64,000 bases of DNA, from contig CAZOLB010000001.1 in assembly GCA_964580825.1 (NCBI GenBank), forward strand, positions 3,066-67,065. The letters are read 5' to 3'. This stretch comes from an uncultured Gammaproteobacteria bacterium. GTDB taxonomy: Bacteria; Patescibacteriota; Patescibacteriia; UBA2591; UBA6264. A program made the position numbers and the translations under genes. Below the pieces are notes generated by a model. That model made no database searches. It was not told the DNA's origin and saw nothing but the letters and a program-made list of their open reading frames with translations. Positions 63,300 to 64,000 of the stretch are shown one piece after another (the stretch's first letter is position 1; each line of letters starts with the position of its first letter).

Positions 63300-64000
63300 G
63301 TCTCCCTCACCTGCTCCATAGGTGATACGAATTTAAAATAATCAACGTAAAATAAAATTCGTGATTATTCGTATCTACCTATGAAGCAGATGACACGAAA
63401 CCTAATCTTAAGGACGGCTTCACGCTTATATGCTTTCAGCGTTTATCCAAACCGGACGTGGCTACCCAGCAATGCCCTTGGCAGAACAACTGGTACACCA
63501 GAGGTCCGTCCTTCGAGGTCCTCTCGTACTATCGAAGGGTCCTTTCAAGTTTCGAGCGTCTACGGCAGATAGGAGGCCGAACTGTCTTGCGACGTTCTGA
63601 ACCCAGCTCGCGTACCGCTTTAATTGGCGAACAGCCAAACCCTTGGGAGCTTCTTCACCCCCAGGATGCGATGAGCCGACATCGAGGTGCCGAACTTCGC
63701 CGTCGATATGAACTCTTGGGCGAAACCAGCCTGTTCGTATATTTCTTATCTCACGATAAGTACTGACTATATCTTCATCCCTCTGCTGTCTTACAAGAAG
63801 ACGAGGGAGCACGGCATATTGTGACGGTTTTCAAATTTCCGTCACCTCTCCATTAAGGATTAGTCGATACGGGGTTACTTGGTAAATGGGAGTTTATACC
63901 TCATTGAGGATATAACTTCCTCTTGAATCAAATTAATTAATTTTTTTGTCTCTTGAGTTGGAAATTTAAAATCAAAATTATTAGACTTTTTGACTTCCAG
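63300..64000 (-). rRNA. rrl: 23S ribosomal RNA, 3' portion (domains V-VI), interrupted by an intron; continues beyond the window
   Basis: The minus strand contains CAGGCUGG…CAAGAGUUCAUAUCGACGGCG…GGCACCUCGAUGUCGGCUCAUC… It also contains the sarcin-ricin loop AGUACGAGAGGACC and …GCUGAAAGCAUAUAAGC. The exon matches E. coli positions about 2450-2900. The 3' end is estimated (±30 nt). Sequence 5' of the CAGGCUG junction (beyond about 63737) is not rRNA-like. Confidence 0.85.
63737..64000 (-). other. Group I intron (3' part) inserted in 23S rRNA near E. coli position about 2449
   Basis: The conserved GGGGAUAA|CAGGCUG exon junction is replaced on the 5' side by an intron-like sequence. That sequence carries a P7 5' strand (CCGUAUCGACUAAUCC with the bulged-A GACUA G-binding motif) and a P7 3' strand (GAAGAUAUAGUC). 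A P9 hairpin (CUUAUC-GUGA-GAUAAG) follows, ending in terminal G (…AUAUACG). Confidence 0.6.

Follow-up and report, generated by a model that had tools for sequence, protein, structure and literature searches.

Introduction

The yeast omega intron occupies site mL2449/2450 of the mitochondrial 21S (large-subunit, LSU) ribosomal RNA (rRNA) (PMC4995192), and the Cryptococcus introns at mL2449 (e.g., Cne.mL2449), which are about 1.17 kb long, carry LAGLIDADG_2 genes (PMC5808193). Myxomycetes have nuclear L2449 introns. For bacteria, the 23S rRNA introns described up to 2007 lie at L1917, L1931, L1951, and L2593 (PMC1995217). Here, we analyzed a 64,000-nucleotide (nt) stretch of contig CAZOLB010000001.1 (assembly GCA_964580825.1), referred to as the window, which ends inside an insertion in a 23S rRNA gene. 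It is highly probable that this end holds the 3'-terminal quarter of a mobile group I intron, situated between U2449 and A2450 in the peptidyl-transferase loop of a Patescibacteria-like 23S rRNA and carrying an I-SceI-family gene.

Introns of this general kind are known from the candidate phyla radiation (CPR). The accessible part of the text of a 2024 CPR survey (Tsurumaki et al., PMC11270868) reports insertions in 82 % of the CPR 23S genes and classifies 45 % of the insertions as group I introns by the Rfam model. It also describes abundant LAGLIDADG open reading frames (ORFs), LAGLIDADG_2 proteins of approximately 210 amino acids (aa), and several group I sites "not reported in any known bacteria".

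Results and Discussion

Boundaries and insertion site

In the Rfam scan of the window, LSU_rRNA_bacteria matched positions 63209-64000 on the minus strand (425 bits), and a 5S rRNA was located at 62934-63042. A high-quality, unbroken rRNA alignment was obtained only downstream, starting at ACAGGCUG. The sequence upstream of it was non-rRNA, across which the LSU model had been forced, and a continuous 23S alignment, as expected for an expansion segment, was not obtained.

The 5' exon lies outside the window and was recovered from contigs L001-L004 of four metagenome assemblies, which were reached via a neighboring gene (window 61502-62791, minus strand) and belong to the same organism. The source samples are JGI 3300022556, 3300013090, and 3300025807 and ENA ERZ27245784. 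L001 differed from the window at 9 of 12,499 positions, and the last 264 nt of the window were identical in all four contigs. Positions p of L001 were converted through window coordinate = 72792 - p. The complete 23S gene spans L001 5135-9583 (4449 nt against a model of 2925 positions, 2158.9 bits with LSU_rRNA_bacteria). The recovered 5' exons end in …CUCCGGGGAU / …CCGGGGAU. For L001, the exon ends with …AAAAGUUACUCCGGGGAU at 8039, and the 3' exon AACAGGCUG resumes at 9057, which leaves an insertion of 1017 nt. The window edge cuts off 752 nt of it (L001 8040-8791), and the same arrangement was found in all four independent assemblies. The features at the junction are as follows.

63209..63735, minus strand: 3' exon of the 23S rRNA, from E. 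coli A2450 to the 3' end (Rfam alignment), with first bases AACAGGCUG
63736..64000, minus strand: last 265 nt of the 1017-nt group I intron at site L2449, identical in contigs L001-L004
63736, minus strand: terminal (omega) G, which marks the 3' splice site; 57/57 homologous insertions end in G directly before AACAGGCU

The minus-strand junction reads …AUACG followed by AACAGGCUG, and the exon holds both A residues. The break thus falls between GGGGAU and AACAGG, after E. coli U2449, which corresponds to site L2449. An earlier reading of the window (the sequence-only reading) had proposed a group I intron in the peptidyl-transferase region of the 23S rRNA, at a site documented for group I introns and extending past the window edge. 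The insertion at L2449, which is the omega site, bears this out in each respect. The break itself was rightly assigned to a conserved 23S site; however, it had been set between GGGGAUAA and CAGG, and the true break is 2 nt upstream because the exon keeps both A residues. Similarly, the range given for the intron (63737-64000) does contain intron sequence, but the terminal G is located one base outside of it. For the E. coli numbering, we used an annotated rrl copy of 2903 nt. The standard position is the copy position plus 1, as checked via the A2058 landmark. A whole-gene MAFFT alignment with the E. coli 23S placed the start of the insertion correctly (after 2449) and smeared the remainder; the boundaries were taken from the exact exon motifs.

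Secondary structure and covariation

The 57 loci with the same junction (described below) yielded 52 non-redundant introns and a 35-sequence alignment (A2) covering several phyla. The fold was read from the aligned non-coding 5' and 3' segments, in which conserved blocks lie between hairpins that are sequence-divergent yet complementary. For scoring, 13 helices with 74 proposed pairs, including the pseudoknot, were evaluated on A2 against six slid registers and 500 shuffles. The cells were paired in 84.5 % of the cases for the 74 pairs and 35 sequences, as compared with 41-46 % for the slid registers and 69.4 % for the shuffles. Changes on both sides were observed in 431 cells versus the 165 expected, and none of the 500 shuffles reached any of the five observed measures. 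RNAalifold on its own recovered P1, P2, P3, P4, P6, and P9.0, and compensatory changes were present in P2-P6, P8, and P9.0. The intron contains a complete group I core, with the P3-P8 and P4-P6 domains and the P3/P7 pseudoknot, backed by covariation. Its elements are listed in 5' to 3' order.

P1: GGGAUAC with GUGUCCC; the exon end GGGAU pairs with the internal guide GUCCC
P2: closed by a GUAA tetraloop
P3: ACGGC (L001 8085-8089) with GCCGU (63811..63815, minus strand); 100 % paired, forms the P3/P7 pseudoknot
P4: ACGGU with ACCGU; 99 % paired
P5: CCC with GGG, closes a 170-nt extension
P6: GGG with CCC (3' strand 63873-63871, minus strand)
P6a: GUUAUUUGGU with ACCAAGUAAC (3' strand 63883-63874, minus strand), encloses the ORF
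63862..63865, minus strand: P7 5' strand GACU, within the conserved block ACCCCGUAnCGACU
63821..63859, minus strand: P7.1 (UCC…GGA, 63859-63849) and P7.2 (GUGACGG…CCGUCAC, 63845-63821), between P7 and P3'
63779..63807, minus strand: P8 hairpin CCCUC GUCUU … AAGAC … GAGGG
63765..63774, minus strand: J8/7 and P7 3' strand block AGAUAUAGUC, with the P7 3' strand AGUC at 63768-63765
63737..63763, minus strand: P9.0, GUA 63763-63761 with UAC 63739-63737, around P9
63760-63745, minus strand: P9 hairpin CUUAUC-GUGA-GAUAAG with a GNRA (GUGA) tetraloop

The splice-site U·G pair in P1 (columns 8/50) was conserved in 35/35 sequences. Covariation was found in P3 (one pair being AU in 22 and GC in 12 of the 35 sequences) and in P4 (UA in 28, GC in 6). 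The 5' strands of P6 and P6a lie beyond the window at L001 8289-8303, opposite the 3' strands at 63871..63883 on the minus strand. This helix was 90 % paired, with both-side changes at 9/13 pairs, and one P6a pair was CG in 22 and UA in 13 of the 35 sequences. The segment enclosed by P6/P6a measured 568-621 nt in 52/52 homologues. The base of P8 was 82 % paired with both-side changes at 4/5 pairs, and a single hairpin was formed there in 44/52 homologues. P9.0 was 97 % paired, and two of its three pairs showed both-side changes in 21/35 sequences.

The P7 helix GACU/AGUC was invariant in 35/35 sequences, hence no covariation is possible. Both this helix and the invariant block GAAGAUAUAGUC match the Rfam consensus, and J8/7 with the P7 3' strand is the strongest part of the alignment with the Rfam group I model RF00028. 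The block AGAUAUAGUC occurs once in the 64 kb, where 0.06 occurrences would be expected by chance. The group I hallmarks named in the sequence-only reading were all found on the minus strand: GACUA with the P7 5' strand (63865-63861), the P7 3' strand within 63774-63765, and a P9 hairpin followed by a terminal G directly before the exon. Inspection by eye indicated that the exon ACAGG could form P10 with the guide UCUGU, leaving A2450 unpaired. For many relatives, the corresponding pairing would be that of exon AACA with UGUU.

Two hairpins, P7.1 and P7.2, between P7 and P3' are the mark of subgroup IA as defined by Michel and Westhof. Per-sequence folding predicted exactly two hairpins in this segment for 47/52 introns despite their sequence differences, which suggests that the intron belongs to subgroup IA. 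The Twort intron is cited as the reference for P7.1/P7.2 (PMC1995217).

The P5 extension of the window intron is AT-rich and approximately 170 nt long (L001 8107-8276, corresponding to window 64516-64685). It contains 3.6 tandem copies of AATTCCT and folds as a single long arm closed by CCC/GGG (z = -5.3). No such extension was seen in the 51 other introns.

Intron-encoded endonuclease

On the minus strand, frame 1 has no stop codon between the window edge and the UAA at 63877-63875, where the translation ends with …SMRYKLPFTK.

63875..64000, minus strand: C-terminal 41 codons and stop UAA (63877-63875) of the LAGLIDADG_2 (I-SceI-family) ORF, by translation

The full ORF is situated in the P6 loop. 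It starts with ATG at L001 8318 or 8321 and stops at 8915-8917, giving 199 or 198 aa, respectively; the protein searches were carried out with a 196-aa fragment starting at L001 8327. Pfam LAGLIDADG_2 (PF03161) matched with E = 3.5e-39 and 134.9 bits (cut-off 25) over profile positions 2-168 of 168. The relatives in the PDB were only I-SceI entries (best, E of about 4e-14) and one other intron endonuclease. BLASTP against I-SceI gave 27 % identity over 199 aligned positions, end to end (E = 6e-17). The ORF motifs LGTVMGDAYI and LAVWFMDDGYY aligned with the I-SceI motifs GDAYI and WFMDDG. Among 29 aligned homologues, G13 and D14 were invariant, and D116 and D117 were at least 90 % conserved. 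These results agree with the homing endonuclease that the sequence-only reading had considered possible for the part beyond the window. The product is predicted to be an active monomeric two-motif LAGLIDADG_2 endonuclease of the I-SceI family.

A large protein database contained an entry of 198 aa with 100 % identity (P0001) and 420 homologues at E < 1e-5, which were intact and mostly of about 200 aa. Named homologues were few (Microgenomates, Uhrbacteria, "Patescibacteria group").

The final codons ACC AAG UAA double as the 3' strand of P6a, therefore the coding and ribozyme functions overlap. For two homologous loci, L018 (2764-3462) and L010 (3001-3666), the frame runs through P7, P3', P8, and P9 and ends 5 nt and 39 nt from the 3' splice site, respectively. 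These loci are cases of extreme coding/ribozyme overlap. Cyanobacterial rRNA introns are known to have ORFs that extend into the core helices (PMC1995217).

The same element in other bacteria

The scan for relatives, with one genome per species, returned at least 550 stretches encoding related proteins, and 80 loci were fetched. In 57 of these, including four copies from the window organism, the ORF lies inside an insertion bounded exactly by …GGGAU and AACAGGCU. They comprise essentially all the fetched loci with a protein at least 40 % identical and both flanks present. The 57 insertions are 827-1269 nt long, and all of them end in G. The hosts are mostly Patescibacteria, together with Aquificota (Thermocrinis, Hydrogenobacter sp. 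RSW1), Armatimonadota, Fervidibacter, some proteobacteria-labeled metagenome-assembled genomes (MAGs), and the cultured acidobacterium Pyrinomonas methylaliphatogenes K22 (Acidobacteriota).

Compact L2449 introns of 827 nt with an intact I-SceI-like ORF were observed in P. methylaliphatogenes K22 (L010) and Hydrogenobacter sp. RSW1 (L017). These cultured non-CPR hosts are potential experimental systems and a possible source of thermostable I-SceI relatives. Three of the loci (L006, L013, L023) are from MAGs labeled "uncultured Gammaproteobacteria" and one (L012) is from a "Deltaproteobacteria" MAG. For L006 and L013, the 23S exons show about 80 % similarity to those of the window organism, the same as for named Patescibacteria. 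Their introns and endonucleases are among the closest to those of the window (53-62 % protein identity), and these contigs may be mis-binned.

The loci L066-L085 encode LAGLIDADG_2 homologues with 31-39 % identity, and in the fetched loci these are not flanked by the L2449 junction motifs. They fit sister endonuclease lineages that target other rRNA sites, such as that of I-MG11 near 2590-2600.

Proposed mechanism

According to the fold, the precursor rRNA would adopt the group I core, in which P1 aligns the exon GGGAU with the guide GUCCC and places the U·G pair at the splice site. The P3/P7 pseudoknot would carry the guanosine-binding site, with P4-P6 as the scaffold and P7.1/P7.2 as IA-type peripheral hairpins. 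An external guanosine would attack after U2449. The terminal G (63736) would then occupy the G site, held in position by P9.0 and by P10, the latter formed between the exon ACAGG and the guide UCUGU. Ligation of the exons would restore the catalytic-center sequence GGGGAUAACAGG, and the spliced junction would read CUCCGGGGAUAACAGGCUGGUUUCG. The endonuclease presumably cuts intron-less 23S rDNA (the DNA encoding this rRNA) at the same site (putative target CTCCGGGGATAACAGGCTGGTTTCG), and repair would copy the intron, i.e., homing would take place. Since the intron lies in the peptidyl-transferase loop, its accurate removal would be obligatory, assuming that this is the working 23S gene of the organism. 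CPR genomes usually carry a single 23S copy, according to the accessible text of the CPR survey (PMC11270868).

Weighing of the alternatives

Several observations weigh against a mobile, self-splicing group I intron. RF00028 has a gathering score of 50 bits; the window fragment gave a partial match of 29.2 bits (E = 2.1e-5 for 801 nt), the homologues reached 27-31 bits, and for L001 4700-9900, which contains the complete intron, there was no match with E <= 0.01. P7.1, P7.2, and P8a were only 36-48 % paired in the MAFFT alignment, and their backing comes from the per-sequence folding only. These low scores were attributed to MAFFT, which cannot align hairpins of variable length. The strict search for a conspecific intron-less allele, using the ligated junction as a 37-mer, found no match in the metagenomes. 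The search with a 27-mer of the junction returned 100 stretches, whose 23S identity to the window organism was at most about 81-83 %. These searches yielded no intron-less allele from a close relative; identity to the nearest 23S lacking the intron is only about 81-83 %, and recent mobility in this lineage is unsupported. Since no conspecific intron-less allele was found, the intron may be fixed in the lineage of the window organism. Finally, we infer splicing in vivo from the sequence; the activity and target of the endonuclease and the current mobility of the intron are likewise predicted.

The RF00028 scores deserve closer consideration. In the scan of eleven related loci, the L2449 introns gave only partial matches of 27-31 bits, whereas other introns in those related 23S genes passed the threshold with 79, 68, 58.7, and 53.6 bits. 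Because the other introns in the same loci were found, the low score is a trait of the L2449 family and not contrary evidence. It is probably due to the ORF of about 600 nt in L6 and to the IA-type periphery. The RF00028 scan, which the sequence-only reading had pointed to, fell short of the gathering score, but the P3-P7-P9 core was recovered by the family-specific comparison. RF00028 was set aside as the sole test, as the same scan found the other introns and the family-specific covariation was strong. The additional group I introns elsewhere in the related 23S genes are at L009 4481-4821, L016 852-1552, L007 1370-1632, L018 733-1404, and L017 967-1653, with 79, 68, 58.7, 53.6, and 49.4 bits, at or nearly at the gathering score. 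These extra matches imply that several related rRNA genes, including those of Aquificota and Fervidibacter, hold multiple introns.

The alternative that has to be taken most seriously, although it is unlikely, is a group I derivative that no longer self-splices and needs a maturase or host factor, or a vertically inherited element with a dead endonuclease. The intron is identical in four samples, and together with the unsuccessful search for a conspecific intron-less allele, this fits fixation and relaxed selection on the endonuclease. Maturase activity of a LAGLIDADG protein is known for the bacterial 23S intron of Thermotoga (PMC3984707), and the 170-nt AT-rich extension of P5 is lineage-specific. 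Nevertheless, conservation is complete for the core of the ribozyme, P7, the splice-site U·G pair, and the terminal G; the ORF is intact with both catalytic motifs, and the position in the peptidyl-transferase center demands accurate removal for a working ribosome.

An rRNA expansion segment, or an intervening sequence that RNase III excises without ligation so that the 23S stays interrupted or fragmented, is very improbable. Simple hairpin insertions do occur elsewhere in the same 23S gene, two of about 163 and 169 nt within the 5' half and one of 81 nt close to the 3' end. Bacterial 23S rRNA is also known to contain intervening sequences that fragment it, and the accessible text of the survey suggests them for CPR (PMC11270868). 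However, U2449/A2450 belongs to a universally conserved catalytic loop and not to a surface helix, and the insertion forms a pseudoknotted, covarying group I core instead of one hairpin. It also has an invariant terminal G with the preceding U·G pair and a homing endonuclease gene inside. The sub-threshold Rfam score could, in principle, point to a chance resemblance or a chimeric assembly at the junction, but this explanation has practically no probability left. It was refuted by the agreement of the four independent assemblies, by the common junction and core of 57 loci from different phyla, and by the covariation that 0/500 shuffles reached. Accordingly, we retain the mobile group I intron at L2449 as the preferred explanation.

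Host and genomic context

The sequence-only reading had referred to Patescibacteria-type genomes, and the named loci with the 23S nearest to that of the host are Patescibacteria. For the spliced exons, Ca. Uhrbacteria (80 %) was the nearest, followed by Ca. Magasanikbacteria (79.6 %). Judged by this 23S similarity, which permits a rough placement, the host appears to be Patescibacteria-like and far from any named genome.

No 16S rRNA gene was found within approximately 5 kb upstream of the 23S gene (L001 1-5134); this region contains protein genes, namely those for TsaD and a Na/Ca exchanger as well as small ORFs. The 16S gene thus appears not to be linked to the 23S-5S pair. An 81-nt insertion (window 63298-63403, minus strand) is present in the 3'-terminal domain of this 23S rRNA at Rfam model position of about 2815, for which the consensus shows 5 nt. 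The insertion forms one long near-perfect hairpin (-50.7 kcal/mol, z = -9.2) and is also the source of spurious sub-threshold microRNA matches. Both an expansion segment and an intervening sequence of the RNase III type are possible readings. Four further insertions of the same gene lie beyond the window at L001 5437-5599, 5859-6027, 6513-6545, and 6706-6748. Their sizes and approximate E. coli sites are about 163 nt after ~292, 169 nt after ~545, 33 nt after ~1014, and 43 nt after ~1173, respectively, and no ORF of at least 60 aa was noticed in them. The sites near 545 and 1173 are presumably the classical helix-25 and helix-45 sites of intervening sequences.

Annotation of the 23S gene of the window organism needs in silico splicing between GGGGAU and AACAGG. 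The "hypothetical protein" of about 199 aa inside the 23S should be annotated as a homing endonuclease and not as a cellular gene.

Comparison with known systems

We take the omega ORF to lie in a loop other than P6. The comparison with omega is based on the site and the endonuclease. The window ORF is located in the P6 loop and extends into P6a. Omega and the fungal mL2449 introns share with the window intron the rRNA site L2449 and the combination of a group I intron with a Pfam LAGLIDADG_2 gene. The length of 1017 nt is similar to the approximately 1.17 kb of Cne.mL2449. Among proteins of solved structure, the closest to the ORF product is the omega enzyme I-SceI, with both motifs aligned. 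Its target TAGGGATAACAGGGTAAT shares the core GGGATAACAGG with the window junction, but the flanks differ (CCGG…GCTGG for I-SceI, TAGG…GGTAAT here). Unlike in the case of omega, the host is bacterial and not mitochondrial, and the protein identity is only 27 %.

Two further groups of bacterial elements are related to a lesser extent. The 23S introns of Thermotoga, Simkania, Coxiella, and Synechococcus are also bacterial LSU group I introns with LAGLIDADG genes and ORFs entering the core helices; however, they are at L1917, L1931, L1951, and L2593, none being at L2449, and encode single-motif LAGLIDADG_1-type enzymes (PMC1995217). The metagenomic meganuclease I-MG11 (bioRxiv 10.64898/2026.03.18.712669) is a monomeric I-SceI-family enzyme from a prokaryotic 23S intron, but its target GGGTTACGCGAGCTGGGTCA corresponds to 23S positions near 2590-2600. 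I-MG11 was rejected as an orthologue due to this different target site and is regarded as a paralogue.

The CPR rRNA introns (PMC11270868) agree with the window intron in the host group and in pairing a group I intron with a LAGLIDADG ORF within the 3' half of the gene for the 23S, as far as the accessible text of the survey goes. That text names positions 1917, 1931, 1952, 2593, 2604, and 2657 and lists sites 23IS9-11 without numbers; in this part, neither 2449 nor I-SceI is mentioned. It labels the LAGLIDADG proteins "single-domain", whereas the window protein has two motifs in one Pfam domain, like the monomeric I-SceI. The survey used the Rfam model, which is sub-threshold here, thus some L2449 introns may sit among its unclassified insertions. 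More generally, surveys based on RF00028 would have under-counted the L2449 family, because this standard covariance model scores it below the threshold and under-detects it.

The window intron may belong to a large omega-like clade in Patescibacteria, Aquificota, Acidobacteriota, and Armatimonadota (at least 550 stretches), whose I-SceI-family endonucleases and L2449 location may share their ancestry with the yeast and fungal omega introns. We propose this grouping tentatively, at slightly less than an even chance. If the shared ancestry is true, transfer between bacteria and organelles is implied, and hundreds of naturally occurring relatives of I-SceI would be available, whose target specificity is shifted and some of which are thermophilic. 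The current view of group I introns and CPR rRNA genes is unchanged, since LAGLIDADG-bearing rRNA introns of CPR have been catalogued before and the window intron joins this known type. The classic omega/I-SceI pairing of L2449 with a LAGLIDADG_2 enzyme has abundant bacterial counterparts, including those in cultured strains. The added value of our analysis is modest: it ties omega/I-SceI explicitly to bacteria, documents the spread over several phyla, and exposes a blind spot of the Rfam model.

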